64,000 bases of DNA, taken from assembly GCA_965248355.1 (NCBI GenBank), contig OZ252098.1, positions 1,390,098-1,454,097 of the forward strand, read 5' to 3'. The notes below the pieces were generated by a model. The model was not told the DNA's origin. It was given only the letters and a program-made list of their open reading frames with translations, and did not search any database. A program made the position numbers and the translations under genes. Source of the DNA: Candidatus Latescibacterota bacterium (lineage in GTDB: Bacteria; Latescibacterota; UBA2968; UBA8231). Positions 20,665 through 62,793 of the stretch are shown one piece after another. Each line of letters begins with the position of its first letter. Positions within the stretch are counted from its first letter, which is position 1.

Positions 20665-20689
20665 TTTAGAAGTCCCTATTCCAGGCTCA

Positions 20690-20800
20690 TTCCGGGAATA
20701 CTCCTCGAGGCTCTCCCGGCCCCGGCCGTTGGCGACGGTTCCACGCCCGATGGACCGACTCCACGGTACCAGAGCATCTTGGGGCGCCCAGAGCCAAGAG
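20690..20800 (-). pseudogene. ISL3-family transposase fragment
   Basis: The nucleotide sequence 'ctctcccggccccggccgttggcgacg' and the translation '...GRGRESLEEY' parallel the ISL3 copy at 6090–6120 ('DGRGRESLEAYF'). Confidence 0.4.
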
Positions 20801-21389: not shown

Positions 21390-21540
21390 CACGTGTCATT
21401 CGGCCAGTTGCTGCTCCATGTCCCGGAGGCCGAAGCTACGGCCATTGATCTGCAGGACATCGCAGTAGTGCAGCAGTCGATCCCAGATGGCCGTGGCCAG
21501 ACCCGTCGGCAGCATCTCCGGCCATTGGCGGATGCTCTTC
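21390..21540 (-). pseudogene. IstB-like (IS21 helper ATPase) C-terminal fragment
   Basis: Minus-strand 'MLPTGLATAIWDRLLHYCDVLQINGRSFGLRDMEQQLAE*' matches the IstB C-terminal pattern 'AILDRLLHH..V..I.G.SYRL'. Confidence 0.35.
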
Positions 21541-21570
21541 TTGGAGGTGATCGATCAGGGTGCTGGCGCG

Positions 21571-22749: not shown

Positions 22750-22846
22750 TCCGTTGGAAAAAGGCGAGGGATGAGGGAGGTACCAACTCCCCTCGTACGG
22801 GTCCTTTACTAGATTAGGCAGGCCACGTACCCAAGGAGCCGGATCG

Positions 22847-44748: not shown

Positions 44749-44899
44749 GCAACGTCTTGCGGAACAGCTGCGGTGCCCCGGTGCCTGCGCTCGGATTCGC
44801 TCAAGCGGCGGCTGCCTCGGGGCGATTTTCCATCCGCCGCCCGCAAAGCTACCTTCCCGGCAGGCGTCTCGACCCGGCGCCGATCCCGAGGAGGCCGCC

Positions 44900-45808: not shown

Positions 45809-46755
45809 CAACGCCCAAGGGCCAAACAGAACACGCACTGATCGGCGAAGTCGAAAAGCTGATCGATGAAGGAGCGCGGCTCTACGAGAAGGAAACGGAG
45901 GAGTTTCCCCGCCTCCACTTCGACCGGCATCTCTACCAGCCCCTGTTGGTTGAGAAGAGCGACAAGGTAAAGACGGCGCCCCCGGCGTTGAACCAGAGCG
46001 AACAGCGGTTCGTGAAGGATCTGAAAGCCCACTGGAAAGCCGAACGCGACCGATCCCTCGCCGGGATGGAACTGTTCCTCCTGCGGAATCTGAGCCGTGG
46101 GGTCGGCGTTGGCTTCTTTGAGACAAGAGGCTTCTATCCTGACTTCATCCTCTGGATCAAGAAGGGGGAGCAACAGCACATCGTCTTTGTGGAGCCGCAC
46201 GGAATGATCCACGCAGAAGCATACCAGCACGACGACAGGGCCCGGCTTCACGAAAGGCTGGCGGAGTTGACAAGGGAACTCGGCAATGAGAATGTGACCT
46301 TGGACTCCTACATCATTTCCGCAACTCGTTACGACGACCTTCGCAAGAGGTACGACGACGGTTCATGGGACATGGAGAGATTTGCAGGGGCGCATATTCT
46401 GTTTGCGGAAGACTGCTACATCAAGAGGATCTTTCAGGGAGTTTGCCAGGCAAGGCTGCACTTCCCTGAAGACAGAATCGCCGAATTCTGCCGGCGCCAT
46501 CACATCCGGCGCATGGCCCTGTTCGGCTCGGTTCTCCGCGACGACTTCACCTCCGAAAGCGACGTCGATGTGCTGGTGGAGTTCGCGCCCGGCCAAACGC
46601 CGGGACTGGCCTTCATCACCATTCAGGACGAGTTGTCGGAGATATTCGGCCAGCGAGTGGATCTGCACACCTTCAGCGGAATCGAGGGAAGCCGGAACCG
46701 GTTGCTTCGGGAGGAGATTCTCAAGTCTGCGGAGATTCGGTATGAGCAGGCGTGA
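45805..46755 (+). CDS. Fusion of an uncharacterised N-terminal domain (about 200 aa) with a C-terminal MntA-type minimal nucleotidyltransferase (antitoxin-like)
   Basis: C-terminal 'RRMALFGSVLRDDFTSESDVDVLVEF' MNT signature (GS...D.D). The N-terminal part has no recognised motif. ATGA overlap with the AKR stop. Confidence 0.6.
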   Translation: MTTPKGQTEHALIGEVEKLIDEGARLYEKETEEFPRLHFDRHLYQPLLVEKSDKVKTAPPALNQSEQRFVKDLKAHWKAERDRSLAGMELFLLRNLSRGVGVGFFETRGFYPDFILWIKKGEQQHIVFVEPHGMIHAEAYQHDDRARLHERLAELTRELGNENVTLDSYIISATRYDDLRKRYDDGSWDMERFAGAHILFAEDCYIKRIFQGVCQARLHFPEDRIAEFCRRHHIRRMALFGSVLRDDFTSESDVDVLVEFAPGQTPGLAFITIQDELSEIFGQRVDLHTFSGIEGSRNRLLREEILKSAEIRYEQA

Positions 46756-47086
46756 TGACCGGGTAAGCCTGGTCGATATGCTCATCTACGCCAGGGAAGC
46801 CGTCGCCTTGTCCGGGCAGAAAAGTCTGAAGGACCTGGAAAAGGATCGGGTTGTTCAGCTCGCCCTGCAGAAACTGGTGGAGATTGTCGGCGAAGCGGCC
46901 AATCGCGTTTCCCAGGAGACACAGCAAGGTCATCTGGAAATCCCTTGGCCCCAAATCATCGGAATGCGCAACCGCCTGGTTCACGGCTACGATGAGGTCA
47001 ATCTCGAGATCCTGTGGAAGATTGTTGAGACTGACTTCCCTCCACTCATCCAGCAACTGGAAGAGATCGTTGGAGACGAGCCATAG
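46742..47086 (+). CDS. hepT: HepT-like HEPN (DUF86) toxin
   Basis: 'RNRLVHGYDEVNLEILWKIV' R-x4-6-H HEPN motif. Overlaps the MNT gene by 14 bp. Confidence 0.7.
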   Translation: MSRRDDRVSLVDMLIYAREAVALSGQKSLKDLEKDRVVQLALQKLVEIVGEAANRVSQETQQGHLEIPWPQIIGMRNRLVHGYDEVNLEILWKIVETDFPPLIQQLEEIVGDEP

Positions 47087-47124
47087 CGGCACTTGCCGCC
47101 CCGGACCGGGGGCGGCGATGTTTC
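47087..47124. promoter_or_regulatory. 38-bp bipartite motif R2 (copy of R1 architecture) immediately after hepT
   Basis: 'cggcacttgccgc' + 15 nt + 'gcgatgtttc', identical in spacing to R1. Confidence 0.4.
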
Positions 47125-47139
47125 GGGCGAGGGCGATCC

Positions 47140-47594
47140 TACCACCACAAGACCGGAAGCCGGAACGCGTCCTCCGGGAGGCGCAGGTCGACGTCATCAT
47201 CGTAACCCTCAACTTCGACGACCACCACACCTACGGCTTCGACCGCACCGTGCTGCCCCTGGCGGCGGAGCGCAACGTCGGCGTGGCGGCCATGAAGGTC
47301 TACGGCGGCGCCGAGGCGATGGAGTACCGCACCGGTGAGGACGAGGACGGGCGCCCCTCCGCCCTGGAGGCAAACGCGCGGGACTTCGACCACGAGAGAG
47401 CCTTCCGCTGGGCCCTCGGCCTGCTTGGCGTCGGGGTCGCCGTGATCGGCATGTACTCGGAGAAGGAGCTGGACCACAACATCGAGTGGGCCCGCCGCTG
47501 GCAGCCGCTCACGGCGGAGGAGGAGGCGCAATTGCTGGAGGAGGGCCGGCGCATCGCCCGCTCCTGGGGCGACCACTACGGGGACCTGCTGTGA
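47140..47594 (+). pseudogene. Orphan, roughly 90%-identical duplicate of the 3' 455 bp of the AKR gene (45353–45808)
   Basis: Nucleotide and protein alignment: 'RVLREAQVDVIIVTLNFDDHHTYGFDRTVLPLAAERNVGVAAMKVYGGAEAMEY...' vs copy 1 '...REAEVDVIMVALNFVDHHTYGFDRTVLPLAAERNVGVAAMKVYGGAEAMEY...'. No 5' half. Confidence 0.7.
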
Positions 47595-47836
47595 CCCTCT
47601 CCGCTTTGCGGCGGGAGCCGCCCGAGGGCCGCGCCGACTTCGTCAGGGAGATCGCCGACGACGTGAGCCGGCGCATCCGCGAGGGCCTCGTGGCCGAGGC
47701 CGAGGCCCGGGAGTTGGCCGCGGGTCTGCGCTTTCAGGCGGGACTGCTGCTGCCGGGCCGCCTGGAGGCGTTCGACCGCATCTACGGCTCCCGCTTCGAG
47801 CGCCTGATCCGCCAGTTCCTGCGCGGGGAGAGCTGA
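47591..47836 (+). CDS. Hypothetical small protein (GTG start overlapping the AKR-fragment stop)
   Basis: 81-aa ORF with coding-like codon bias. No motif. Confidence 0.3.
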   Translation: MTLSALRREPPEGRADFVREIADDVSRRIREGLVAEAEARELAAGLRFQAGLLLPGRLEAFDRIYGSRFERLIRQFLRGES

Positions 47837-47964
47837 AGGCGACGGCGGTGGTCCCTATGCGTTCGGGTATCGTCGACACCAGCCGGCCCGTCTTGCGAGG
47901 TAGGAGGACAGCGCCGAGCGTTGATGAAGTTGGCTCATCGATCGGATGAGGGAAGCTCGGGTTT

Positions 47965-48756
47965 CTACGGTAACAGAACTGGCTTCAGATCAAACCTGTT
48001 CCCATCGGTGCTCATTTGATAGAGTGGTATATCGGGCATTTCCTTGAGAAGAGCAAGAACCGTCTCGATGTCTGAACGGGAAGCACGTATACCGAAGGTG
48101 ATGGACCGTACGCGTGCATCCGTACTCTTTTCACGGACGAGTTCTCCGGGCTCTTTTGAAAAGAAAACTAGCCGCCACTCAAGCTCGTACCTCCAGCACG
48201 GAGCTTTCGTGTACAGAATCTTATTCATGAAGCCCACAGGGTCTTCAAAGAAACTGAGATCCTCGGTTATTGGACGCCTGTTACTGTATTCGACCCTCCT
48301 GCATGCACTTCCTCCCAGGTCGTTGTTGGGCGTGCGTTCGTATTCGATACAGATACCCCTGTGGTTGTCGGCGTAGTGAGACCACATAAGCACTTCGAAC
48401 GGCGTAGCACTGAGCGAAGCAACACCACAAGTCCGTATTGCTTCCTGCATCCACGAGAGGGCTTCAATCATCTTCTGTCTCTCGTCATGCACATTGTCAA
48501 CGGTGTAGTTCTCCGGTTCGCCCTTGGATCGTGCGCATTCGTTCAAGTGGGCGGCAATGTCCGCGTCCGAAAATGAAGGCTTGAAGACAGAAAGTGTATC
48601 AAAGGGATCATTGAATGAGCGGGGCTTGGCGAGCCAGAGAATCCCTTTGACCAAGCTCGATATGGAATGTTTGTCAATGGGGCAGTACCTAAACAGTGAA
48701 GTAGGGTTGTCCGAAGAGATTTCCTCTCTTGAAATCAAGACTGCATTCCTCCTCAA
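47965..48756 (-). CDS. DUF2971-family protein (low-GC)
   Basis: 'LMWSHYADNHRGICIEY' DUF2971 signature. GC is about 50% against a 70% background. Confidence 0.5.
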   Translation of the reverse strand: MRRNAVLISREEISSDNPTSLFRYCPIDKHSISSLVKGILWLAKPRSFNDPFDTLSVFKPSFSDADIAAHLNECARSKGEPENYTVDNVHDERQKMIEALSWMQEAIRTCGVASLSATPFEVLMWSHYADNHRGICIEYERTPNNDLGGSACRRVEYSNRRPITEDLSFFEDPVGFMNKILYTKAPCWRYELEWRLVFFSKEPGELVREKSTDARVRSITFGIRASRSDIETVLALLKEMPDIPLYQMSTDGNRFDLKPVLLP

Positions 48757-48831: not shown

Positions 48832-51504
48832 TCAGAACGCCGTCGCCGAGACCGCCTTGGCGATCATCAGCGTGGCGGCGCAGAACATGCCCACCAGGGA
48901 CATGCCCACCCCGAAGCCGACGGCCAGGACCATGGCGTACTGGCGCCACTGCTGGCGGCCGTAGCGCGGCCAGAAGTAGTGCTTGGCGATGAGGGCGCCG
49001 ATGACCTCGGTGAACATGGCGAAGAAGGTCGCCGCGCCCGCCGAGGCCACGCCCCGGATGAAGCCCCAGACGAAGAACATGGGCATGCCGAGGAACCCGA
49101 GGATCGAGTAGAGGCCCAGGCCGAAGACCAGGCCCACGACCATGATGGGCCACTTCACGCCCTTCGTGGGGTGGCCCAGGTCCTCGTCGATCTCGCCGTC
49201 GCCGTCGTCGTCCTTCTGGTTGAGGACCTCCTCGTCGGCCAGGCCGTCGAAGTCCTCGTCGCGGCCGTCGCCCGTCGACTTCGGGTCCTTCCAGAAGATC
49301 TGGAAGAACATGGGGGTCTCCAGCGAGCCCTGGAAGAAGTCGCCCCGGAAGCCGGGATGCGTGTCCAGCTCGAAGAGACAGACCACCTCGCGGTCGTGCC
49401 AGGCCTCCGGCAGGCGCACGCGCAGCATGGTCTCGGCCTGGGCCACCACGCCGCCGTCGGCGGGAGACAGCCGCAGGGGCCGCGGCAGGTCCGGGTTGGT
49501 CCTGCTGTCCGGGGGCGGCTCGAGCAGGACCGGCTGCTGCCGGTCGGCGCCGGCGCCGGGGAAGTCGGTGTAGAAGTACCCCGTCGCCGACCAGGGCCCG
49601 TAGCGCCGCAGCCCGGGATTCTGGATCTGCACCTCGTCGGAGACCCGGACGCGCCAGTAGTAGAGGGAACGGTCCTTCAGGTTGGCCGGGCTCCAGGCCA
49701 CCTCTCCCGGGGGCAGGACGCGGCCCTCCACCTCTTCCCCCGCCTCGTAGGTGAGGCTGTACTGGGTCGCCGAGAACCGCACCGCCTCCTGGAAGGCGCG
49801 GGCGGGCCAGAAGGTCTGCACGTAGGGGTAGGCGTCGGAGGGGATGGGAGCCAGCTTCCACAGGAAGCTCCAGTACATCAGGCTGGCGCCGAGGACGATG
49901 GGCACCATGACCAGCTCCGCCTTCAGCAGGCTGGTGAAGCGCATCCCCGTCAGCTCGATGATGCGGAAGGTCTCGGCGTTGCCGCCGAAGTCGGCCCCCG
50001 CCAGGGGCACGAACCAGATCTCGACGCCGCGGTACCCGGTGAGAAAGACGATCGCCTCGTGCAGGTGCGGGATCTGCACGTTCTGCCCGATCAAGCCGTC
50101 CAACCGCGCCGAGACGAAGGACATGATGGGGGCGTAGACGAAGGCGAGGACCAGCATCACCACCAGGATGCCGGTGGTGACCAGCGACGGGAACAGGGTC
50201 TTGGCCAGGAGGAGGGGATAGGCGGCGGCGAGGAAGAACAGGCTGAGGCAGATCCACACCGGGAAGTCGCCCCGGTTGAGATGCTTCACGCAATAGCCGC
50301 GGATGCGGGACGGCTCATGGCACTCCGGGTGCCGGCAGACGTCGGGGTCGTGGCCTTGGGCCTCCGCCTCGGACCGGTCCTCCCGGTGCTCCCGGGTGCC
50401 GCGCACCACCTGCACCAGGGAGATGATGGTGGTGGCGAAGATGACGCCCAGCCCGAAGGGCTGCCAGAAGTCGACGCCGGCGGTGATCTGCGTCTGCACG
50501 GCGCCCATGCCCGGCACCCAGTGGGGCATGAACCCGTAGTGGTGCAGCAGCGGCGACAGGACGATGAAGGAGACGACCGCGGCGAAGGAGCCCATGACGC
50601 TGTAGAACGGCAGCAGCAGGCCGGCGAAGATCGGCGACAGGCTGAAGCTGATGGCGATCGGCGTGGCCCCGAGGTAGCGCCCCAGGGTCGGGGTGAGGTC
50701 GGCGAAGGGGATGGGCAGGATCGTGACCTTGGTGCCGGCGAAGACCTCGGTGAGGGACGGGATCCCCACGTAGACGAAACCGAAGACGAGGCCGATCGCC
50801 CCCCCCATGGTGAAGCAGGGCCACTTCCAGGTCTGCTTCTCCGAGCCGCTCTCCTCGGCCAGGGCCATGGCCCCGAGGGCGGCCTGGGGCGCCGTGGGGA
50901 AGGGCAGGCGCTCGCGGTCGGAGACCAGCCGGAAGAGGACGTACCCGGAGGTGAACCAGGTGATGCGGCCGACGATGATGCCCAGCACCAGCAGGGCGAT
51001 GGGCAGGGCCCAGTCCATGTGGAGGAAGGTGCGCTGCAGGATCGCCTCGGAGTCGGGCGGCGGCGAGAACCACCCGTACCCGAGCCACTTCAGGCCCACC
51101 AGCTTCTCCGTGAGGCCGAACTGGGCGGCCTCCTGGGAGCCGACGAAGTACTGCCGCCAGATCAGCTGCAGGAAGGTGCCGGTCTCGGCGCGCACGATCA
51201 GCTGCGAGGCGACGTAGGTGAGCAGGAAGATCTCCTGCCGCCTCAGGGTCGTGAAGGAGCGCTTGGCGATCTCCAGGAAGAGGATCACCGTCACCCACTG
51301 GGCCGCGTCGCCGATGCCGATGCCGGTCACCAGCGACAGGTACATCTGGCCCGGGGTCATGATGAAGGCGATGAACAGCACCCCCACCAGGGTCTTGATG
51401 GTGTACCCGTGCTCGAAGCGTTCCGGCGCCTGCAAGAGATCCCGGTATTCGTTGATCTCCTGGTACTGGCGCTCTCGCTTCGTCTGTCGGGATTTTTCCG
51501 CCAT
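48832..51504 (-). CDS. 890-aa polytopic membrane protein (at least 12 TM). Possibly an OPT-superfamily transporter with an inserted cytoplasmic Cys4 zinc-ribbon and a large extracytoplasmic domain.
   Basis: N-terminal 'YTIKTLVGVLFIAFIMTPGQMYLSLVTG' resembles the OPT-family entry motif. 'CRHPECHEPSRIRGYCVKH' is zinc-ribbon-like. Many hydrophobic helices. Confidence 0.45.
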   Translation of the reverse strand: MAEKSRQTKRERQYQEINEYRDLLQAPERFEHGYTIKTLVGVLFIAFIMTPGQMYLSLVTGIGIGDAAQWVTVILFLEIAKRSFTTLRRQEIFLLTYVASQLIVRAETGTFLQLIWRQYFVGSQEAAQFGLTEKLVGLKWLGYGWFSPPPDSEAILQRTFLHMDWALPIALLVLGIIVGRITWFTSGYVLFRLVSDRERLPFPTAPQAALGAMALAEESGSEKQTWKWPCFTMGGAIGLVFGFVYVGIPSLTEVFAGTKVTILPIPFADLTPTLGRYLGATPIAISFSLSPIFAGLLLPFYSVMGSFAAVVSFIVLSPLLHHYGFMPHWVPGMGAVQTQITAGVDFWQPFGLGVIFATTIISLVQVVRGTREHREDRSEAEAQGHDPDVCRHPECHEPSRIRGYCVKHLNRGDFPVWICLSLFFLAAAYPLLLAKTLFPSLVTTGILVVMLVLAFVYAPIMSFVSARLDGLIGQNVQIPHLHEAIVFLTGYRGVEIWFVPLAGADFGGNAETFRIIELTGMRFTSLLKAELVMVPIVLGASLMYWSFLWKLAPIPSDAYPYVQTFWPARAFQEAVRFSATQYSLTYEAGEEVEGRVLPPGEVAWSPANLKDRSLYYWRVRVSDEVQIQNPGLRRYGPWSATGYFYTDFPGAGADRQQPVLLEPPPDSRTNPDLPRPLRLSPADGGVVAQAETMLRVRLPEAWHDREVVCLFELDTHPGFRGDFFQGSLETPMFFQIFWKDPKSTGDGRDEDFDGLADEEVLNQKDDDGDGEIDEDLGHPTKGVKWPIMVVGLVFGLGLYSILGFLGMPMFFVWGFIRGVASAGAATFFAMFTEVIGALIAKHYFWPRYGRQQWRQYAMVLAVGFGVGMSLVGMFCAATLMIAKAVSATAF

Positions 51505-51672
51505 CAGGCCACCTGTCGCAGGGCGAGATCAGCCAACAAGAGTTTCGCGCCAGCGAAACTCGCAACAAAGCCGCGCAGCGGCTTTGCGATCTCCTGGTAC
51601 TGGCGCTCGCGCTTCGTCTGTCGGGGTTTTTCCGCCATCAGGCCGCCTGTCGCAGGGCGGGATCAACCCACA
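51461..51672. repeat. Tandem direct duplication (about 85 bp ×2, 45-bp spacer) of the 5' end and leader of the 890-aa gene, with hairpins in the spacer
   Basis: 51461–51545 and 51590–51672 are roughly 90% identical. Copy B encodes a decoy 'MAEKPRQTKRERQYQEI...' start. The spacer holds a 9-bp-stem hairpin (gagtttcgc/gcgaaactc) and an 8-bp-stem hairpin. Confidence 0.6.
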
Positions 51673-51693
51673 CGCGCAGCGGCTTTGCGCGTT

Positions 51694-54600
51694 TCACGAG
51701 ATCTCCTCCACCGGGTCCAGCTCCAGCTCGCCCGCCGGCAGGGACACCTCCCGGCAGTGGACGGCGTGCTCCTCCTGGATATCCGTCTTCAGCGTCTGCC
51801 ACACCAGGAACCGCTTCCGCATCTCCAGCATGAAGCCGAGGTTGAGGCGCTGCCAGAAGGCCACGGGCCCGCTCACGCGCTCGATGTAGAGCTGGATCTC
51901 GCAGATCGACGGATTGCCCGTGGGCGCGATGGTGAACTGCAGGTACTGGCTCACCCCCATGTCGAAGGGCGCCAGCCACAGCAGCAGCTGCACGGCGCGC
52001 TCCCCCTCCTCGACGACGATGCGCGTGCGCTCGGTGTACATGTGCCCCACCGATTCGTGGCCGTACGAGCAGAAGAAGGAGTGGAGGTACCCGCACAGGG
52101 AATCCACGGCCTTCACGTTGACGGTGAAGGGGAAGGGAAAGCGCCAGACGTCGTCCTCGGGATCGGGCAGCTGCCAGCGGCGCACCACGTCGGGGACGGC
52201 CAGCTGCGCCGCCGTCCGGGCGGGGTAGACGCTGGACAACAGGACCACGGCGATCACCAGCAGGGCCGAGCCGATGGCCGCCGTGGAGGAGTAGTTGAGG
52301 GAGACCCCGCCGAGCAGGCCCAGGGAGAGCAGCACCTTGCCTCCCACCTGGCCGAGGACGTAGCCGATGACCACGCCGAGGACGCCGTAGACGCAGGACT
52401 CGGCGACGAAGAGGAAGGCGATGTGGACCGGCGCCAGCCCCACCGAGGAGTAGACGCCGATCTCGCGGAAGCGCTCGTAGACCGCCCCCATCATGGTGTT
52501 GAGGACGATCAGGGCGGCGATCAGGATGGGGATGACGAGGGCGCCGAGGCCCTCCACGCTGGTCAGGCCGATGCTGCTGTAGGCGTAGGTCCTCGGCTCG
52601 CCCTCCTCGTCGGGCATGCCCACGAAGAGGCGGAAGTTGGCCCGCGTGAGGTACTCCTCGATCAGCTGACGGCTCGGCACCTCGTCGTCGAAGGAGATGG
52701 CCACCGACATGAGCTCCGCCCCCAGGCTCTCCAGCCGGGCGTAGGGCATGACGGCCAGCCGGGCGGCGGACAAGTGCTCGTAGCCGACGTCGATGTCGGC
52801 GTCCATGAAGAAGTCGTTCATCATGAACATCTGGTCGAGGCCGGGCATGTTGAACTGCTCGAACTGCTCCTTGGCCGGCGTCAGGGGCTCGTTGTTCAGG
52901 TCCCGCACCTCCTCGAAGAGGAGAGGATCGTAGATCCCCACGACCTGCCACCCCTGGCCGAAGACGCGCACCAGGGGCCCCTCCCCGCGCTCCACCTCCT
53001 CCTCCGAGATGCCGAGCTGCTCCGCCAACGGCGCCGCCAGGATGGTGCTGCTCTCGCCGGGATCGACGAACCAGCGGCCGGCGGTCAGGGCGCGGTCGAT
53101 GCCCGTCACCTCGGGCTCGGCCGGCGTCAGGCCGAGCACGCCGAGAGCGTCCGCCTCCCGCCCCCGGAAGCGCATGGGGATGTAGCCCTCTTCCTCGAAA
53201 CCCATGGTCATCCAGGTGCGCGCCACCACGGTGCCGGCCTCGCCGAAGTGGGAGTGGAGGTAGTCGTAGACCGGCGGCTCCCAGGACCACCAGTGGATGT
53301 CGTGCATGAGGACGCCGCGGTAGAGGGGCTCCCAGTCCTTCTCGAAGCCGACGAAGCGGATGGCCGGCTTGAAGGAGGTGAAGGAGAGGACGGTGAAGGT
53401 CAGCATGGTGATCGTCGTCAGGGTCAGGCCGGTGCGCAGCACCCGGCGGCGCATGTTGGAGATGCCGAGCATGAAGGCCACGTAGGCGGTGCCGGAGCGG
53501 CTGAGGTCGCCGCTGGCGGTGCCCGCCGAGCGCTGGCGCAGCTCGGCCATGTAGGCGTTGAAGCGGGAGACGACGAGGGTGATGACGAAGATGGCCATGG
53601 CCATCACCATGAGCGCCAGCAGCACGATCACCGGGTGGGCCAGCTCGAAGGCCGGGTGCACCTGGGACAGGATCACCCAGATGACGAGCATGATGGCGGT
53701 GAACCAGGCGATCTGGCGGCGGATGTCGGGGGCCGCGAAGAGCAGGCGCTCGGCGAAGAACGCCGCCGGCACCAGGAGGGCGACGAAGAACACGAGGCCG
53801 GTGATGATGTCGTTCTGGGTGCTGCGCACGTCCGGGTAGGCCCGGTACTCCAGGCCGATCGCCTCGCGCACGTACTTGGCGTAGCGCCCCCAGTCGAGCC
53901 CGGCCATGGCCTCCTCGGCCTTCTCCACGGCCACCAGCGCGCGCTGGTGCAGAGCGTCGAGGCGCGGGTTCTCGATGGCGAACTCGCGCATGCGCTCCAT
54001 GCGCACCTCGTCGAGGCGCCACATGTCCCGCGTCGACTGCAGGGTGGCGTACGGGATCATGCGCCGCCGCGACAGGTCGAAGCCGGCCCCCTGGGCGCTC
54101 AGCTCGTCCACGGCGCCGGTGTTGTTGAGCAGCACCATCGACTTGTCCACCAGGCGCAGCGGCTCCTCCGGCGGTCCGTAGAGGACCATCATGCGCTCGA
54201 GGAAATCGCCCATGACGTAGCCGTACTGGCGGGGCACGGCGCCGCGGTCGTCCAGCACCTTCATCCCCCTGTGGGAGTTGCCGAAGGTGAAGTGGAACCC
54301 GGCGTGGATGCGGTCGTGGATCTCGATGCTCTCGGTCTCGAAGAGGATCGTCGTCCACACCGTCTCCGCCTTGGTCAGGCCCTGCCGCCAGGCGCCGATC
54401 TTCTGGGCCCGATCGCCGAGGTCCGTGGCGTAGGTGATCTCCCCCGTCTCTTCATCGAGGAGGAAGGCGTGCACCTCCATCCTCCCCCGGGACAGGCCGT
54501 TGACGGCGTAGTTGCCCTCGTCGTCGGCCAGGGCGATCCAGGGGCGCCACATGTCGGGGTAGTAGTCGTGGAGGAGGACCACGGCGCCGTGGGGCACCGG

Positions 54601-56511
54601 GTCCTCGGGCGTGGCCGAGCGCCTCGGCAGCAGCCGCAGCCGGCCGTCGATGGCGACCCGGCCGTCGGGCAGGTTCTTGTCGTGGGCGGGACCGAGCTTC
54701 TCCCACTCGGACCCGAAGAGGCCGGGGTCGGCCAGGGCCCGGGTGAGGACGTGGTTGATCATCTCGCTCTGGCGGGCCACGTTGCCGAAGTCGACCCGGT
54801 CGGGGCGGTCCAGGGGGCTGTCGAGGGCCGACCGCCGGTCGGTGGTGGTCACCAGGTTGAGGGCCACCAGACCCACGTCGCGGGCGATCTCGCCGTCCTC
54901 GCGGTAGACGTCCTCGTCGAGGTAGCTGTCCCACGACAGGCCCTTGATGGGGCTGACGAGGTTGACGAGGCCCCGGGGCTCGCGTCCGAGATCCGCGGCC
55001 GCGCCGGCGGCATGGCGCGAGAAGCTGCGCCCGAGGGCGACGAAGAACCGGCGGTGGGCGGACGCACGGGCGCTGTGCACCAGACCGACCTGGTCGGACT
55101 GGCTCGACAGGTCGAGGGCCAGGAAGAGATTGATGTCGAGGCTGTCCGGCTCCAGGCGGATGCCGAGGGAGTCCGGCTTGATGCGCCGGCGCTTCAACTG
55201 GGCCCTGAGCCGCGGCAGGTCGACGGACTCGAGGACCGGTCCGCCGGCCGTGTCGCGCAGCCGCACCCCCAGGGTGTCGAGGGGGATGGCGAGGGCGTCG
55301 GTCTGCCGGACCAGCTTGTCGACCTTCAGGGAATCGGCGACGAAGCGCTTCGGCATGCGGCCGCGGAAGGGGGCCAGCCGGCGCGCGTGCTTGTTGAGCC
55401 ACTGGAACAGCCCCCTGTCGCCCTGGAAGTGGGAGCCCGTGGCCACCAGCACCACCGAGCGCGCCGGCGGGTGGTCGCGCAGGTGGCGCGCCAGCTCGAG
55501 GAGGGCGGCGATGCCGCAGGCGCTCTCGGCGGCCGGCGCCTCCGAGGGAACCACCGAAAGCCCGTCGTAGTAGGCGTGGACGGCGACCAGCTCCTCGGCA
55601 AGGCCGGGCGTGGTGCCGGGCACGCGGCCCCATATCGCCCAGGTCGTGTGCCTCTCGAAGTCCATGCGCGCCCGCAGATGCACGGCGATCTCGCCGTCGC
55701 CGAGGCGCTGCCGCAGACGCAGGGCCGCCTGCCGCCCGAGCCAGAACCTCGGCACGTCGACGGGGGTCCAGCTCCACTTGGTGCGCGACTCGAAGTTCGT
55801 CGTCTCCTCGGGCTCGACGAAGATGATCGCCTGGGCGCCGAGAGCGGCCGCGTTCTTCCAGTTCGTCCAGGTGTTGAACTCCATGAGGACGACGGCGCCC
55901 TCCATGGCATGGCCGTTGAAGTCGGCGTGCTCCCCGGCGCCGCCGTAGAACAGGTGCCCGCGCCGGCCCTCGGGCCCGAGGGTGTTGGTGCGCACCAGGT
56001 TCGGCCACAACGACTGCAGCGGGATCCTCTCCACCACGCCGCCGCCCTCGTCGAGCAGCTCCAGGGAGGCGCCGTGGTCCATGGGCACGACGATCTCGTA
56101 GGGCTCGCGCTGCACCTCGCGGACCCCCGCGGCGCGCAGCTCCCGCTCCACGAAGTAGGCGGCGAAGCGGTCGCCCGGGTAGCCGGCGATCCGCGACCCG
56201 TGGGAGGAGAGCTGGCGGATGGTGTGGGCGATCCGGCCGAAGGCGTCGCCCTCCGCGGGGGCCGCGGCCTTGGCCGGGGCCGTCTCCGCGGCGGAAACCA
56301 GGGCCGGCGCTGCGAGGGCGGCCAAGGCCAGCGCCGACAGGAGCGCCAAGGCAGCGCGCCGGCCGCTCCGGGGGCGCGGCCCGGGAGGGACCGGTGGCGC
56401 GAGGGCCGCCAGGCCGGTGAGAACCCGGCCACTCCAGAGGCGCGGCCGAGGAAGGGGCGGCGGCGCGGCGTCCCAAGCCGCGGCGCGGTGGAGGCGCATC
56501 CCGGCCTTCAT
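51694..56511 (-). CDS. About 1605-aa membrane protein: signal/anchor + PA/M28-peptidase-like domain + large extracytoplasmic region + C-terminal FtsX-like (MacB-type) permease module
   Basis: Start at ATG 56511 (ATGA overlap with the upstream gene). 'ESACGIAALLELARHL...VVLVATGSHFQGDRGLFQW' is M28-like. 'RRRVLRTGLTLTTITMLTFTVLSF' is FtsX TM1. C-terminal 'ERFREIGVYSSVGLAPVHIAFLFVAESCVYGVLGVVIGYVLG' is FtsX TM2–4. The 1908-aa track ORF carries a 303-aa N-terminal antisense extension. Confidence 0.55.
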   Translation of the reverse strand: MKAGMRLHRAAAWDAAPPPLPRPRLWSGRVLTGLAALAPPVPPGPRPRSGRRAALALLSALALAALAAPALVSAAETAPAKAAAPAEGDAFGRIAHTIRQLSSHGSRIAGYPGDRFAAYFVERELRAAGVREVQREPYEIVVPMDHGASLELLDEGGGVVERIPLQSLWPNLVRTNTLGPEGRRGHLFYGGAGEHADFNGHAMEGAVVLMEFNTWTNWKNAAALGAQAIIFVEPEETTNFESRTKWSWTPVDVPRFWLGRQAALRLRQRLGDGEIAVHLRARMDFERHTTWAIWGRVPGTTPGLAEELVAVHAYYDGLSVVPSEAPAAESACGIAALLELARHLRDHPPARSVVLVATGSHFQGDRGLFQWLNKHARRLAPFRGRMPKRFVADSLKVDKLVRQTDALAIPLDTLGVRLRDTAGGPVLESVDLPRLRAQLKRRRIKPDSLGIRLEPDSLDINLFLALDLSSQSDQVGLVHSARASAHRRFFVALGRSFSRHAAGAAADLGREPRGLVNLVSPIKGLSWDSYLDEDVYREDGEIARDVGLVALNLVTTTDRRSALDSPLDRPDRVDFGNVARQSEMINHVLTRALADPGLFGSEWEKLGPAHDKNLPDGRVAIDGRLRLLPRRSATPEDPVPHGAVVLLHDYYPDMWRPWIALADDEGNYAVNGLSRGRMEVHAFLLDEETGEITYATDLGDRAQKIGAWRQGLTKAETVWTTILFETESIEIHDRIHAGFHFTFGNSHRGMKVLDDRGAVPRQYGYVMGDFLERMMVLYGPPEEPLRLVDKSMVLLNNTGAVDELSAQGAGFDLSRRRMIPYATLQSTRDMWRLDEVRMERMREFAIENPRLDALHQRALVAVEKAEEAMAGLDWGRYAKYVREAIGLEYRAYPDVRSTQNDIITGLVFFVALLVPAAFFAERLLFAAPDIRRQIAWFTAIMLVIWVILSQVHPAFELAHPVIVLLALMVMAMAIFVITLVVSRFNAYMAELRQRSAGTASGDLSRSGTAYVAFMLGISNMRRRVLRTGLTLTTITMLTFTVLSFTSFKPAIRFVGFEKDWEPLYRGVLMHDIHWWSWEPPVYDYLHSHFGEAGTVVARTWMTMGFEEEGYIPMRFRGREADALGVLGLTPAEPEVTGIDRALTAGRWFVDPGESSTILAAPLAEQLGISEEEVERGEGPLVRVFGQGWQVVGIYDPLLFEEVRDLNNEPLTPAKEQFEQFNMPGLDQMFMMNDFFMDADIDVGYEHLSAARLAVMPYARLESLGAELMSVAISFDDEVPSRQLIEEYLTRANFRLFVGMPDEEGEPRTYAYSSIGLTSVEGLGALVIPILIAALIVLNTMMGAVYERFREIGVYSSVGLAPVHIAFLFVAESCVYGVLGVVIGYVLGQVGGKVLLSLGLLGGVSLNYSSTAAIGSALLVIAVVLLSSVYPARTAAQLAVPDVVRRWQLPDPEDDVWRFPFPFTVNVKAVDSLCGYLHSFFCSYGHESVGHMYTERTRIVVEEGERAVQLLLWLAPFDMGVSQYLQFTIAPTGNPSICEIQLYIERVSGPVAFWQRLNLGFMLEMRKRFLVWQTLKTDIQEEHAVHCREVSLPAGELELDPVEEIS

Positions 56512-57230
56512 GACGCGCCGGTCCGCCTTCGGAAGCAGGCGTCCCAGTCGGCGGTGGGCTCGAAGCCGAGGATGCGGCGCGCCTTCTCGAAGGTGTAGAT
56601 CCCGGGGCCGCGGAAGGAGAGGACGTTGAAGCTCTGGAAGTCGTCCGGGATCTCCTCCGCCTCCAGGGCCAGCCGGCAGATGTGGTGCAGGTCCTGCCAG
56701 ACCACGGTGAAGGCGGGCGCGTCCCGGGGCTCGGCCGCGGGCTCCGGCGCCGGGCCCAGACCGTTGAAGACGAAGTAGGCGGTCTGGATGCCGTGGGCCT
56801 GGGCGAAGACCCGGCAGATCTCGGCGCTCAGCCACTTGGAGAGGACGTAGCAGCCGGTGCCCGGCGCGGCGGGCGCGTCGTCGACGCCGAAGTCGTGATC
56901 GTAGGCCGAGCGCACGGCCTGGGGGCCGGAGTGGATGACCTTGCGGATGCCCAGCTCGGCGGCGGCCTTCATCACGTGCCAGGCGCCGGCGGTGTTGACG
57001 TCGAAGCTGTCCACGGGGTGCTCGCGCACGACCGTGAAGTTCATGATCGCGTCCATGCCCCGGGCCGCCTCCAGCACCTGCTCGTAGGAGCGCACGTCCA
57101 CCCTCTCCACAGGGCGGCCCTCCGGGTGGTCCTGCACGTCGGTGAGGCGCAGCTCGTAGTCCTTCTCCAGGCCCGGGGTGAGATAGGGCCCGACCAGACC
57201 GGAGGCGCCCAGGAAAAGGATCTTCTTCAT
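56508..57230 (-). CDS. NAD(P)-binding epimerase/dehydratase-like (atypical short SDR) protein
   Basis: 'MKKILFLGASGLVGPYL' Rossmann motif. About 240 aa. Confidence 0.55.
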   Translation of the reverse strand: MKKILFLGASGLVGPYLTPGLEKDYELRLTDVQDHPEGRPVERVDVRSYEQVLEAARGMDAIMNFTVVREHPVDSFDVNTAGAWHVMKAAAELGIRKVIHSGPQAVRSAYDHDFGVDDAPAAPGTGCYVLSKWLSAEICRVFAQAHGIQTAYFVFNGLGPAPEPAAEPRDAPAFTVVWQDLHHICRLALEAEEIPDDFQSFNVLSFRGPGIYTFEKARRILGFEPTADWDACFRRRTGAS

Positions 57231-57997
57231 GCGCCGGCTCCGGCCGCCCACTGGCGGTGGAAGTCGTGCCGGGGCTCGAAGCCCATCTCGCGAATACCGT
57301 CGAGGAGGAACTTCGGGTGCGGGGGCTGATGGCAGACGTGCCGCACCTGCCAGCGCCCCACCCAGTTGCGGGACCCCGCCCGGTCCCGGCCCAGGGCCAG
57401 CTCCACGGCGGCGGCCGCATCCCGCGGATCGAGCCAGGTCAGGTCCGGTTCGGTGCCCTCGGCGACTTCGTCCTCGCGGGCCAGGCGTCCCAGCCGCAGC
57501 ACGGTGACGGTGACGGCGTGGTCGCGGGCGAACTCCCGGGTGACCTGCTCGGCCAGGTGATACGCCAGGCGACTCATGGCCGTCCCCGGCCGCGGACGCT
57601 GTTGCTCGGAGACGTACACGTCGTCCGGGACCTCGTGGAACACCTCCAGGGAGCTGCAGTAGACGAGGCGCGACACACCCGACTCGACTGCGGCCTGCAG
57701 CAGGGCGCGGGTCCCGCGCGTGGCCCGGTCGAGGAGGGCGCGCTCGCACTCGTAGGAATCGGCGGGCGGAAGAGCGGGAGGCCCGGCCGGGCCGGTATGG
57801 ACGATGGCGTCGACCCCGGCCACCGCGAGGCAGGCGCCGTCGGCATCGTACAGGTCGGCGTCGACGACCTCGAGGCCGGAGGCGTCCGGTGCTTCGGCGC
57901 CCGGGGGGCGGGCGACCCGGAGCCGGTGATCCCCGGAGAGCCTGTCCAGGAGGACGCGGCCCATGCGGCTCGTACCCTCGGATACAAGAATCCGCAT
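57227..57997 (-). CDS. NAD(P)-binding domain protein (NmrA/epimerase-like)
   Basis: 'MRILVSEGTSRMGRVLLDRL' Rossmann-like N-terminus. ATGA coupling to the downstream gene. Confidence 0.5.
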   Translation of the reverse strand: MRILVSEGTSRMGRVLLDRLSGDHRLRVARPPGAEAPDASGLEVVDADLYDADGACLAVAGVDAIVHTGPAGPPALPPADSYECERALLDRATRGTRALLQAAVESGVSRLVYCSSLEVFHEVPDDVYVSEQQRPRPGTAMSRLAYHLAEQVTREFARDHAVTVTVLRLGRLAREDEVAEGTEPDLTWLDPRDAAAAVELALGRDRAGSRNWVGRWQVRHVCHQPPHPKFLLDGIREMGFEPRHDFHRQWAAGAGA

Positions 57998-58113
57998 GTC
58001 GGGGACAACTCCGGTGAGGATCCGCGCTCGGGCCCGCGCGCGAGTTGGGGAAGGGCTGCCGGCAGAGTGAGTTACGCCGGAAGCGGCAACCTACCGACGC
58101 CCCGGAGGGGCTG

Positions 58114-59319
58114 TCAAGCCAAGGGGCCCGGGCCCGCGGCGGGGTCCTGTCCGCAGAAGTTCAGGGCGGTGGCCGCGTAGACCCGCGCCACCCGCACCAG
58201 CTCGGCCACGGGGACCCGTTCGCCGGTGGTGTGGGCCCCGGTCGCCGCCGGACCATGGGTGATGGCGGGGATCCCGGCTTGCGCGCAGAAGCGGTTGCCG
58301 TCATCGAGGAAGGGCTTGTCCGCCCAGGGCAGGGCGGCGCCGTCCATGGCCTCCACCGCGCCTTGGAAAGCCCTCACGAGGGGGTCCTCCGGGCGCAGCT
58401 CGAAGGCCTCCCCCACGATCTGGAACTCCACCCGGGCCTCGGCGCCGAAGCGGGAGGCCACGGACCCGGCCAGGGCCGCCAGCTCCTCGCGGACCGTCTC
58501 GCCCCGGCCTTGGGAGACCCATCGGCGCGTGCCCTGGAGCCGGCAGGCCACCGGGGCCTGGTTGAAGATCTCCCCCGACCCGAGCTTGCCCACGAAGACG
58601 GAGTCCCGGCCGCTCACCTCGTGGCGGGTCTGGCTCAGGCGCGCGTCCAGATCTCTAAGCTCCCCCACCAGGGCGGCCCCGGCGGCGACCACGTCCGGGG
58701 TCTCCGGGGGCCGCAGGACCTCGTGCACGGCCTCCCCCGGCCGGGTCAGGCGGATGTCGAAGACGCCCATGCCGCGGCCCGCTCCCGGCAGCCGGTCGGC
58801 CAGGTACTCGGGCAGGAGCACGCCGTCGCCCACGTATCCCTCCCGGATGAGGGCCGCCAGCTGACGGCCGTCCCCCCAGGGAGCCTCGTGGTGGTCGTGG
58901 GCGGTGAGCAGGATCCCGCCGGCCCGCGGCAGGCCGGAGTCGCGCAGGGCGCGCAGGGCCTCCACGGCGGCGGCGATTCCGCCCTTCATGTCCGCCGACC
59001 CCGAGCCCGTGAGCACGCCGCCGCGGACGGCCGGCGGCTCGAAGGGCAGGTGCACGATGTCCAGGTGGCCGTTGAACTGCAGCCAGCGCCCCGGGGCGCC
59101 GCTGTCGAGACGGGCGACGACCGCCGGCGACTCCGGCCAGTCGGCGGCCGGACGCTCCACCTCGAAGCCGTCCGCCCGCAACCGCCGGTCCAGCCGCTCC
59201 GCCGCTTCCCCGGCGGATCTCGTGGGGCTGGCCGCGGCGACCAGGTCCACCGCGGTCTCCAGCAGGCGAGTCTCGTCGACGGCCTCGGCCACGGCGCGGT
59301 GATCAGCAGCGCCGGTCAT
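58114..59319 (-). CDS. M20-family metallopeptidase/deacylase (ArgE/DapE/ACY1-like)
   Basis: 'GSGSADMKGGIAA' motif. Strong SD 'GGAGGAGGAG' before ATG 59319. Confidence 0.7.
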   Translation of the reverse strand: MTGAADHRAVAEAVDETRLLETAVDLVAAASPTRSAGEAAERLDRRLRADGFEVERPAADWPESPAVVARLDSGAPGRWLQFNGHLDIVHLPFEPPAVRGGVLTGSGSADMKGGIAAAVEALRALRDSGLPRAGGILLTAHDHHEAPWGDGRQLAALIREGYVGDGVLLPEYLADRLPGAGRGMGVFDIRLTRPGEAVHEVLRPPETPDVVAAGAALVGELRDLDARLSQTRHEVSGRDSVFVGKLGSGEIFNQAPVACRLQGTRRWVSQGRGETVREELAALAGSVASRFGAEARVEFQIVGEAFELRPEDPLVRAFQGAVEAMDGAALPWADKPFLDDGNRFCAQAGIPAITHGPAATGAHTTGERVPVAELVRVARVYAATALNFCGQDPAAGPGPLA

Positions 59320-60977: not shown

Positions 60978-61329
60978 CGGCCGCCCGACGCCTGGGCGCC
61001 TGAGACCCGTTGCAACCCCCTCTCCGTTGAAGATCACCGCCCTCGAGCTGACGCCGGTGCGCACCCACCGCGAGATGGGACGCCGCGCCCCCAGCGATCC
61101 CGAGCCGGCCGAGTCCCGCCACGTGGTCGTGCAGCTCCACACCAACGCGGGCGTGACCGGGCTCGGCGAGATGTCGGATGTGGGCTGGGAGTTGGACGCC
61201 GGATCCGCCGCCCGCCTGCAGGCCGCCCTGGAGCCGCTGCTGCTCGGCGCCGACGCCTGGCGCCGGGGCCCGCTGCTGGAAGAGCTATCGCGCCGTCCCT
61301 GGGGGAAGTGTACCCCGTCAACTGGACAG

Positions 61330-61810
61330 GAATTGGGCTTGTACAAGCGAGAGTCTCGAGGGGAGGGTCCAGTTCGGCGAGGAATTCTTCAAAGCTCATC
61401 GGGCCCAGATGTAAGTATTGAATGCGCCCTACGGGCATGGTAAAGGTGTGGGAGCCCGCGGCGACAACCGGCAACTCGGGGTGGTCCTCGAGGAAATAGC
61501 GCAGGGCGGGCAGGGCGTGGGGGGTCGCCTGGATTTCGTCGAGGAAGAGTATGCTGCCCGGTGCCAACAGCGGTTGATCCAGGAGCCCTTGGAGTTCCCG
61601 GCGGATGTGCCTCAGGTCCAAGGTCTGGAACACGGGGTCCAGGTCCGGGTGGCGCTCGAGGTTGATTTCGTTGAGGTGCAGGTGATTGGACTGGGCGAAT
61701 TGTCGCACCAGGGTGGATTTGCCCACTTGACGGGCCCCGCGGATGACCAGCGGCTTTCGCTGTGGAGCGGCCAGCCATTTGGCCAGAGCGCGTTCAGCCG
61801 ACCTGTACAT
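61330..61810 (-). pseudogene. N-terminal fragment of a COG1373-type AAA+ ATPase (AAA_14/DUF4143 family), embedded antisense in the enolase gene
   Basis: 'MYRSAERALAKWLAAPQRKPLVIRGARQVGKSTLVRQF...ILFLDEIQ...YLHLGPMSFEEFL' (Walker A 'GARQVGKST', Walker B 'FLDE'). Truncated after about 160 aa. Confidence 0.5.
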
Positions 61811-61820
61811 GATGAATAAG

Positions 61821-61865
61821 AATGCCCCCGTTTTCGTGCGTATAGCGTACGAAAACGGGGGCATT
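61821..61865. terminator. Perfect 17-bp-stem hairpin (aatgcccccgttttcgt...acgaaaacgggggcatt) followed by TTTT, candidate bidirectional rho-independent terminator
   Basis: The inverted repeat is read directly in the sequence. T-rich tracts lie on both sides. Confidence 0.45.
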
Positions 61866-62793
61866 TTGCAAGGAGGGCGCCGAGCTGCCGGCGCCCACCG
61901 TGACCTACTGCTGGAGGAGCTGTCGCGCCGTCCCTGGGAGCACCAGGTCCTCTGCGGCATCGACATGGCCGTGCACGACGCGGTGGCGCGTGAGCTCGGC
62001 GTGCCTCTAACCGCCCTCCTCGGGGGCGCCTTTCGCGACCGCGTCCCCTTCGCCTATCCCCTCGCCTGCTGCCGGGACGAGGCGACGTGGCGGCCAACCT
62101 CGACCGCATCGAGCGCCGCCTCGGCGAGGGGCATGGCGCCTTCCGCTACTACTTCGGCGTCGACCTGGATTGTGACGAGAGCCTCCTCGACCGGGCCCGC
62201 TCCCGCTGGGGCGACGGCCTGACGCTGACCGCCCTCGACGCCAGCGGCCGCTTCTCGCCCGCCGACGCCGTGGCGGCGCTGAAACGCCTGGCGCCCTTTG
62301 CTCCGGACGTCTTCGAGTCCCCGGTGCGCGGCCGGCACCGTGCGCCGGCGGAGGACTTCCTGGCGGTGAAGGCCGAGATCGACGTGCCGATCTCCGAGCA
62401 CACGGCCGACGAAGCCTCAGCCCTGCGGATGGCCCGGGCCGGCGCCGTGGACGTCTTCAACACCGGACTCGGGTACGCCGGCATCGAGCCCTGCCGCCGC
62501 ACCTTCGCCATGGCCCGCCAGTTCGGTCTGGGAACGCTGATGGGCAGCACCGTGGAGATGTCGATCGGCACCGCCGCGAGAGTCCACGTGGCGGCGGCCA
62601 CGGCGAACCTCGATCACGGCTGCTACATGGCGGGCCCCTTGGTGTACCACGAGGACCTAACCGTGGAGCCGGTCCGCTACGAAGAGGGGCAGGTGCTGGT
62701 GCCCGACGGCCCGGGGCTGGGCGTCGAGCTGGATCCCGAGAAGCTGCGGGCGCTGCAGATCTGAGCGGCGCTATTCGATGCGGCTCCAGCCTC

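Follow-up and report, generated by a model that had tools for sequence, protein, structure and literature searches.

Background

To our knowledge, MacB-type modules have been described solely as ATP-driven devices that push, extract or activate in the periplasm. They belong to the type VII ABC systems (MacB, LolCDE, FtsEX, YtrEF and HrtBA; PF02687 plus MacB_PCD), which have in common a four-helix FtsX-type bundle, a periplasmic domain between transmembrane (TM) helices TM1 and TM2, and an elbow and a coupling helix. Oligopeptide-transporter (OPT) proteins, which carry oligopeptides or metal-chelates, are known as stand-alone proton symporters, and the bacterial ones have barely been studied. 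Here we describe a locus from a Candidatus Latescibacterota bacterium, a member of a phylum of abundant uncultured degraders of sediment organic matter, in which a protein of the first kind and an apparent relative of the second are encoded side by side. The window analysed comprises 64,000 nt of contig OZ252098.1, and all coordinates refer to it. The locus (48832-59319) holds five genes, all on the minus strand of a genome with ~70% G+C, and these are called in order M20, NAD1, NAD2, BIG (the 1605-aa protein) and P890 (the 890-aa protein). A preliminary description of the same DNA had listed this set as an M20 peptidase, two NAD-binding proteins and two large membrane proteins of 1605 and 890 aa, and both the open reading frames (ORFs) and Pfam agree with it, Pfam being silent on P890.

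BIG contains a complete type VII ABC module

BIG is one gene. Its homologues, sought among 5.8 billion proteins, fall into 125 clusters with identities from 97% down to 30% and source labels of Latescibacterota, Gemmatimonadota and Armatimonadota. Most are 1430-1630 aa long and cover 90-100% of BIG. With full-length homologues in more than 100 clusters, we reject a misassembly of several genes, which had been raised earlier as an explanation of the 1605-aa ORF. The layout of the protein was derived from a hydropathy scan and from an AlphaFold2 model of aa 891-1605 (mean predicted local distance difference test score, pLDDT, 81.5), and is given in Table 1. About 830 aa between the first hydrophobic segment and the TM helices are extracytoplasmic, of which aa 601-900 have no match in Pfam or PDB sequence searches. 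The cytoplasmic C-terminal domain appears to have a Bet v1/START/SRPBCC-like helix-grip fold.

The C-terminal part of BIG holds a complete type VII ABC (MacB/LolC/FtsX) transmembrane module, as the preliminary description had recognised. Pfam FtsX (PF02687) matches aa 1325-1436 with E 3.6e-12 (46.8 bits against a cut-off of 25.5), and the family profile matches MacB, YtrF and LolC. Foldseek with the model retrieves MacB (E 1.8e-13), LolCDE, YtrEF, HrtBA, YbbAP, BceAB and FtsEX. The overall fold, the four-TM topology and the large periplasmic domain between TM1 and TM2 are those of the type VII class. The NCBIfam ADOP family (TIGR03434) is among the weak matches. Between TM2 and TM3 lies a coupling helix (YERFREIG...GLAPVH), which is helical in the model, and E1346, R1347, E1350, I1351, G1358, L1359, A1360, P1361 and H1363 are invariant in 39 diverse homologues. 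We infer from the family that a nucleotide-binding domain (NBD) would dock on this helix. Compared with the described type VII systems, BIG adds the ~830-aa PA/M28-derived ectodomain and three TM helices in front and the START-like domain behind.

P890 is predicted to be a divergent OPT permease

P890 has no match in Pfam (no OPT at E≤0.1), in NCBIfam or in PDB sequence searches, and lies below the OPT gathering threshold. A family profile run against 1.84 billion representatives finds 1119 relatives at E≤1e-3, many of them 620-700 aa long and without the ectodomain. Among these relatives P0388 matches the P890 profile with E 2.2e-49 and Pfam OPT with E 9.3e-12 over positions 3-620 of its 623, and Pfam OPT is matched by 19 of the 48 aligned relatives (best E 1.3e-17). 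Because these intermediates match PF03169, P890 is assigned to the OPT superfamily as a predicted divergent permease, homologous to OPT-profile proteins over its whole membrane core. The (E/D)RLPFP loop motif of OPT proteins is also present. An OPT-like motif had been noticed before at the N-terminus; the likeness stands, and its extent is the entire membrane core. The AlphaFold2 model (mean pLDDT 59) is too poor for fold assignment, and its Foldseek match to YS1 serves as a consistency check only.

P890 differs from the OPT proteins to which it is linked through these intermediates (PF03169; barley YS1, PDB 7wst) in three ways besides its score below the Pfam threshold: a Cys3His loop, a ~240-aa Ig-like acidic ectodomain, and a gene that stands with that of a MacB-type protein. 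In 39 aligned homologues (family identity 55-93%), C390, C395, C405 and H408 are invariant, which makes the zinc-ribbon-like motif Cys3His and not Cys4 as first proposed. The extracytoplasmic domain, put at about 200 aa in the preliminary description, is real and somewhat larger (aa 544-786). In the model aa 580-780 are all-beta with pLDDT ~85, the Ig-like fold matches are weak, and an acidic run (aa 749-775) just ahead of the last TM helices is invariant. Type-B paralogues of P890 have a PDZ domain in the corresponding region.

BIG, P890 and DUF6785/DUF6784 proteins form a conserved cassette

Using tblastn, we surveyed 80 genome loci around P890 relatives (numbered with an L below); the 66 that extend at least 7 kb upstream form the basis of the counts. 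In 62 of the 66 (~94%), the gene directly upstream of the P890 relative encodes a BIG homologue. A third conserved partner had been overlooked: a ~700-aa DUF6785/DUF6784 protein (PF20581 plus PF20580) is encoded in 55 of the 66 loci and together with BIG in 52, most commonly in the order DUF6785/DUF6784, BIG, P890. About three paralogous cassettes occur per genome.

By profile alignment, the DUF6785/DUF6784 proteins are themselves divergent members of the OPT superfamily. An initial hhalign comparison of P890 with DUF6785 from a shallow alignment gave no result (probability 5%), and significance was reached only with the deeper alignment (probability 95.8%, E 6.8e-9, 507 columns). The motif (D/E)RERL(P/S)(F/Y)P is common to these proteins and to P890/OPT. 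They are thus remote homologues of P890, which is no member of their families: neither P890 nor any other ORF in the window matches PF20581 or PF20580 by Pfam or tblastn. P0075 (2088 aa) is a natural fusion of, in this order, M28, MacB_PCD, FtsX, DUF6785 and DUF6784. The existence of such fusions argues for physical association of BIG and the DUF6785/DUF6784 subunit. Genetic linkage or fusion to OPT-type permeases is unreported for any member of the type VII ABC family. We found no paper that links OPT with FtsX/MacB, and none that mentions DUF6785 or DUF6784.

The cassette in the window is a reduced variant that has lost its DUF6785 partner and kept P890. The DUF gene is missing from a sub-lineage comprising the window, L004, L005, L082 and L087, in which NAD1-NAD2 stand directly upstream of BIG, and L007 and L014 retain the order NAD1, NAD2, DUF, BIG, P890.

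The ATPase of BIG

The 64-kb window has no Walker-A (GxxGxGK[ST]) or LSGGQ motif in any of its six frames and no tblastn match to either of two ABC ATPases. There is likewise no ABC ATPase within 10 kb of the cassette in L087, a syntenic relative with 97% identity, and no MacB-class ATPase beside BIG in the 62 BIG-containing loci. The preliminary statement that no ATPase gene is nearby therefore holds, and its proviso, that a cognate gene might lie just past the analysed region, is rejected on the same three grounds. Near the cassettes of L001, L029 and L035 are pairs of MalK-type ATPase genes, which were set aside as partners: their products are importer-class NBDs (UgpC/MalK) with TOBE domains, a fucosidase gene in the opposite orientation separates them from the cassette, and they are confined to a single sub-lineage. 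In the window itself the sole P-loop-like gene near the operon is an AAA_14-type ATPase ORF at 61034-61966 (minus strand), which is not an ABC ATPase; its C-terminal part is low-complexity Arg/Pro/Ala, and it may be truncated or frameshifted.

BIG thus differs from the described type VII systems in having no cis ATPase, here and in the 62 related loci, although distant relatives have a LolD-class ATPase in the operon. In the Armatimonadota-type operons L003, L084 and L085, BIG is encoded with a ~665-692-aa P890-like core, a ~300-aa protein of no known family, a PqqD-like (peptide-chaperone/RRE-type) protein and an ABC ATPase; the ~300-aa and PqqD-like genes lie between those for the P890-like protein and the ATPase. 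This ATPase, downstream of BIG, scores best with LolD, MacB, YbbA, DevA and FtsE models (LolD 234 bits). A small FtsX protein (209-227 aa) is also encoded in two of the three operons (L003 and L084), and in L085 BIG is the sole FtsX-domain protein. Three genomes that share the window-type cassette also hold a cassette of type C (loci L028, L031 and L060), made up of genes for a standalone MacB_PCD+FtsX permease, an ABC ATPase, an FG-GAP/ASPIC ectoprotein, a P890 paralogue and a DUF6785 protein. The ABC_tran identity of the L031 ATPase comes from Pfam and tblastn.

The residues of the coupling helix (ERxREIG...GLAP.H) and the basic elbow helix are identical in clades with and without a cis ATPase. 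Given this invariant helix, the cis ATPase of the Armatimonadota-type operons and the type-C cassettes, supply in trans is the most economical explanation, and BIG is probably served by an ATPase encoded elsewhere. The lack of an ATPase is a trait of the gene order, and not necessarily of the machine.

The BIG ectodomain has an aminopeptidase fold without the catalytic site

Over its first ~500 residues, the BIG ectodomain has an M28 fold with a PA insertion. Fold and domain order there are those of the PA-domain M28 aminopeptidases, and the family profile matches YwaD (6hc6; E 2.9e-20 over ~300 residues) and 2ek8 (E 1e-17), as well as nicalin and the transferrin receptor, which also have the fold without the catalytic site. 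Pfam sees little of this: M28 matches partially (aa 296-359, E 5e-5, 23.4 bits against a cut-off of 21.3) and the PA match is weak.

The di-zinc ligands of M28 (His, Asp, Glu, Asp, His) and its catalytic Glu are not conserved in BIG. The first His is replaced by Y315, the bridging Asp by E329 and the Glu-Glu pair by H361-F362; D467 is retained and the final His is gone. In the ligand columns of 39 homologues these replacements are family-wide, with one clade retaining the first His. The ectodomain thus derives from a PA-domain M28 aminopeptidase that has lost the canonical di-zinc site, in line with the PA/M28-like fold and partly non-canonical metal ligands noted previously. Because the ligands are replaced throughout the family, BIG should not be classed as an active M28 peptidase, and it is unlikely to process peptides itself. 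The substituting residues are themselves conserved, and this suggests that the pseudo-M28 site is a binding site that has been kept and not one that has decayed. BIG also differs from the M28 aminopeptidases by a ~90-aa insertion and by the tethering of the domain to a membrane machine.

Proposed function and alternatives

The homology assignments and the architecture of the cassette are, in our judgement, very probably correct. Each component falls in a known superfamily (type VII ABC, OPT, M28/PA and helix-grip). Not described in the papers found are the coupling of a MacB-type to an OPT-type protein, the P890 subfamily, which combines a zinc ribbon with an acidic Ig-like ectodomain, and the role of DUF6785/DUF6784.

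We propose that BIG and P890 belong, as two of its subunits, to a conserved module of the inner membrane for the uptake of peptide-like compounds, which in most relatives has a DUF6785/DUF6784 OPT-like permease as its third part; we put the probability of this overall reading at about 50%. A LolD/MacB-class ATPase dimer, encoded elsewhere in the genome (or in the operon in Armatimonadota-type relatives), would dock on the coupling helix of BIG. The MacB stalk would relay ATP-driven motion to the periplasmic and pseudo-peptidase domains (mechanotransmission), and the pseudo-peptidase/PA ectodomain would capture or present a peptide-like substrate, such as a peptide, a glycopeptide or an N-acylated amino compound. 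The OPT-type permease or permeases would import it on the proton-motive force, and a cytoplasmic M20 deacylase and the NAD1/NAD2 oxidoreductase pair would process it. Capture and import of a peptide-like substrate are favoured because peptide-handling domains recur (OPT, M28-derived, PDZ, PqqD, M20, M42 and M16), and the link to peptides is plausible; import of such a substrate is nevertheless proposed tentatively, at somewhat less than even odds. The preliminary description had suggested an envelope machine for peptide processing and transport or for MacB-like mechanotransmission. Its peptide connection survives, supported by the OPT, PDZ and M20/M42/M16 domains, and processing by BIG does not, the M28 ligands being replaced. 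A stronger form is doubtful, in which BIG, P890 and, where present, DUF6785/DUF6784 make a hybrid supercomplex and a type VII ABC mechanotransducer that runs on ATP is coupled physically to OPT-type permeases that run on protons.

Several observations weigh against the uptake model. We know of no case in which a MacB-type system works with a secondary transporter, so that the coupling step is without precedent. The model of the P890 membrane core is poor (pLDDT <50 over much of it), and the only OPT fold match, the top PDB match YS1, is non-significant (E 0.34). Apart from the MalK-type genes in L029 and L035 and a weak match in L012, the BIG-containing Latescibacterota and Gemmatimonadota loci lack an ATPase gene within 10 kb; the ATPase in trans is something we infer, and BIG in these phyla could be an ATP-independent scaffold or sensor. 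OPT/YSL proteins also carry metal-chelates (PMC9691689). The neighbours of type-A cassettes are mainly oxidoreductases (GFO/IDH/MocA and short-chain dehydrogenase/reductase, SDR, types), a class-III aminotransferase and an Atg22-like MFS protein, and not only peptidases, and the START-like domain hints at a hydrophobic ligand that the peptide model does not explain. These neighbours and this domain leave room for other substrates.

If BIG did function without ATP in Latescibacterota and Gemmatimonadota, it might be a periplasmic receptor or anchor for the OPT permease, with the START-like domain and the zinc ribbon of P890 relaying a signal. This would fit the absence of a cis MacB-class ATPase from the 62 BIG-containing loci and the window, and orphan permeases of the FtsX family are a known phenomenon, an example being the ADOP family (TIGR03434), a weak match of BIG. 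An unused interface would, however, not be expected to keep an invariant coupling-helix motif and basic elbow helix, the same as in the cis-ATPase clades, and the same genomes encode LolD-like ATPases in sister cassettes, all of which makes a sensor or scaffold improbable. Export or detoxification has the precedent that the characterised type VII ABC systems, as far as is known, all expel or extract and none imports: BIG, like MacB, BceAB, HrtBA and LolCDE, would take up from the membrane or periplasm, and then expel, a compound that is hydrophobic or a peptide (candidates being an antimicrobial, a lipid-linked molecule or a peptide made on the ribosome), with P890 as accessory channel or sensor and the START-like domain binding cargo or signal. 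The helix-grip fold is typical of hydrophobic-ligand binders, LPG_synthase_TM (7/127) and YbjN/CesT chaperone-like (30/127) proteins are among the neighbours, and, as in clusters for ribosomally synthesized and post-translationally modified peptides, the Armatimonadota-type operons encode the PqqD-like peptide chaperone, joined in L084 by two M16 peptidases. Yet the cassette is not accompanied by any conserved gene for a precursor peptide, a modifying enzyme, a membrane-fusion protein or an outer-membrane factor. Its neighbours that encode cytoplasmic peptidases and oxidoreductases are in keeping with the breakdown of a compound brought into the cell, and characterised OPT-family members are H+-coupled importers (PMC9691689 for YS1). 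We consider export rather unlikely.

The remaining alternative is a module for cell-wall remodelling or recycling of the FtsEX type, in which BIG would steer or place a periplasmic peptidoglycan activity by ATP-driven mechanotransmission, acting through its pseudo-peptidase ectodomain, the OPT-like permeases would import the muropeptides set free and M20-type amidohydrolases would degrade them in the cytoplasm. FtsEX, PcsB and RipC systems do act by activating periplasmic hydrolases (see also PMC10214136), and M20 belongs to the ArgE/DapE family. The BIG relative P0096 (2462 aa) has a LysM peptidoglycan-binding domain and lies in a locus with alanine racemase, near minE, and L003 adjoins SPOR and FtsZ genes. 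LysM occurs, however, in one cluster of BIG relatives only, and the cassettes contain no gene for an amidase or for a LytM- or EnvC-like partner. With three or more paralogous cassettes in each genome and a changing set of catabolic genes beside them (fucosidase, sulfatases, SDRs, an aminotransferase and M42), nutrient acquisition is a better fit than a wall role, and we give the latter little credence.

Gene order and the BIG-P890 spacer

The features of the locus are collected in Table 1. The ATGA couplings that the preliminary description had attributed to the genes occur at two junctions only, NAD1/NAD2 and NAD2/BIG; gaps of 116 nt and 189 nt separate M20 from NAD1 and BIG from P890, respectively. 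Long antisense ORFs (for example 48979-56598 on the plus strand) were dismissed as high-G+C artefacts, with codon-position G+C and a window-trained codon model favouring the minus-strand genes. A scan of the operon for promoters and terminators gave nothing over background.

Table 1. Coordinates of the genes and features of the BIG-P890 locus in the window
Feature	Coordinates	Strand	Evidence
M20 metallohydrolase (ArgE/DapE-type), 401 aa	58114-59319	-	Pfam PF01546 E 3.8e-18
NAD1, 256 aa, NAD(P)-binding Rossmann (NAD_binding_10/Epimerase)	57227-57997	-	Pfam NAD_binding_10 E 2.8e-14
NAD2, 240 aa, short SDR/epimerase-like	56508-57230	-	Pfam Epimerase E 8.7e-12
BIG, 1605 aa, multidomain inner-membrane protein	51694-56511	-	ORF; Pfam FtsX, M28, PA
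BIG N-terminal hydrophobic segment aa 54-72, Arg-rich tail before it; putative signal peptide or signal anchor	56296-56352	-	Hydropathy, translation
BIG PA/M28-like ectodomain ~aa 95-600, non-canonical metal site Y315, E329, H361-F362, D467	54712-56229	-	Family profile, residue alignment
BIG rest of ectodomain aa 601-900, conserved columns, no family	53812-54711	-	No Pfam/PDB sequence match
BIG three extra TM helices aa 902-979 ahead of MacB-type module	53575-53808	-	Hydropathy; AlphaFold2 fragment helices 3-34, 40-61, 70-106
BIG MacB/LolC/FtsX-type module aa 1005-1437: elbow helix, TM1, ~275-aa periplasmic domain, TM2, coupling helix (YERFREIG), TM3, TM4	52201-53499	-	
BIG C-terminal cytoplasmic alpha/beta domain aa 1455-1590, putative Bet v1/START/SRPBCC-like helix-grip	51742-52149	-	
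BIG-P890 intergenic: hairpin-forming insert and duplication of P890 start region	51505-51693	-	
44-codon upstream ORF (uORF; MAEKPRQTKRERQYQEIAKPLRG...) created by duplication; TGA overlaps P890 ATG	51504-51638	-	
P890, 890 aa, predicted divergent OPT-superfamily polytopic permease	48832-51504	-	Family profile via intermediates
P890 Cys3His zinc-ribbon-like motif C390-x4-C395-x9-C405-x2-H408, in basic, presumably cytoplasmic loop (8 K/R)	50281-50337	-	39 homologues
P890 extracytoplasmic insert aa 544-786, beta-sandwich domains and acidic DxDxDG-type stretch aa 744-775	49147-49875	-	AlphaFold2; D/E columns invariant

The BIG-P890 spacer contains a hairpin-forming insert of ~57 nt, GCAAAGCCGCTGCGCGGCTTTG...GAGTTTCGCTGGCGCGAAACTC, flanked by a duplication of the ribosome-binding and start region of P890 (~77 nt as a direct, ~134 nt as a tandem duplication). 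The same arrangement, including the uORF, is present in L005 and L082. L004 has the hairpin alone, and L087 an empty site with a 24-nt spacer; neither has the uORF. The arrangement could be a small mobile or REP-like (repetitive extragenic palindromic) element, or a leader peptide coupling translation.

Neighbouring genes and the surrounding window

M20, NAD1 and NAD2 are lineage-variable neighbours and not core parts of the cassette. M20 is hit by the NCBIfam ArgE/DapE family deacylase model (E 3.4e-28, below equivalog cut-offs) and has no signal peptide, which places it in the cytoplasm; it stands beside type-A cassettes in 5 of the 66 loci. NAD1 and NAD2 are always found together with overlapping stop and start, and NAD2 adjoins the cassette in L004, L005, L007, L014, L082 and L087. 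NAD2 has the GxxGxxG and YxxxK (YVLSK) motifs; in NAD1 the glycine motif is degenerate (EGTSRMG) and YxxxK is replaced by YHLAE (YxxxE), and the two proteins resemble a catalytic/non-catalytic pair. Between M20 and NAD1 the window (57998-58113) and L082 have ~1.1-1.2 kb less than L087, L004 and L005. In L087 the corresponding stretch (7349-8244) contains two small ORFs (198 and 100 aa), neither of which matches Pfam.

The following neighbour counts are approximate, since ORF calling in the surveyed loci relied on a codon model of our own making. Among 127 nearest-neighbour ORFs there are 30 YbjN/CesT-like, 16 short-chain dehydrogenase, 13 M42 peptidase and 7 LPG_synthase_TM proteins; Atg22-like MFS proteins, LPG_synthase_TM and aldo-keto reductases are the next commonest. 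A 130-aa CesT_Tir_1/YbjN-family (secretion-chaperone-like) protein is encoded directly downstream of PDZ-bearing type-B P890 in 30 loci (for example L050, 13576-13965), and this gene is absent from the window cassette. Type-A loci additionally have a GFO/IDH/MocA oxidoreductase, a class-III aminotransferase and M20. In L084 the two M16 peptidase genes lie directly upstream. The window flanks encode a GHL10-like protein, an MR_MLE-type dehydratase and an aldo-keto reductase.

Directly downstream of P890, the stretch 39544-48756 has a lower G+C content (~54-57% in places) and resembles a variable island of mobile or defence genes. Within it are encoded a DUF2971 protein (47965-48756, minus strand), a nucleotidyltransferase-domain ORF and a 1734-aa DEAD + UvrD double helicase (39544-44748, plus strand). 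The corresponding region of L087 has IS3 and DDE_3 transposases and a HepT/NTP_transf_2 pair. Another stretch of the window, 10000-23000, has ~55-62% G+C, a GC skew of -0.2 to -0.28 and genes mostly on the minus strand. These encode a TPR protein, an LRR + PD40 beta-propeller protein, a DsbA-like protein, a GT2 glycosyltransferase and an 826-aa UDPGT/EryCIII-like + transglutaminase-core protein, and a DDE_3 transposase lies at 21658-22740. In L002 a similar UDPGT+transglutaminase / GT2 pair is found directly upstream of the cassette.

Conclusions

The pairing of a MacB-like permease with an OPT relative recurs in three little-studied bacterial phyla. If the two work together, this would be the first mechanotransmission ABC module to serve a secondary transporter, and a role would be assigned to DUF6785, DUF6784 and the unannotated 890-aa family with its more than 1000 representative clusters. 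The cassette is also a clean natural experiment on whether an ATPase encoded elsewhere can be shared by FtsX-family permeases. If the supercomplex exists, it would be a primary-active periplasmic capture or unfolding device that feeds a secondary-active channel, an unrecognised route of peptide or glycopeptide uptake in FCB-group bacteria and Armatimonadota. With several copies per genome, the cassette may be a major nutrient-uptake route of the Latescibacterota.

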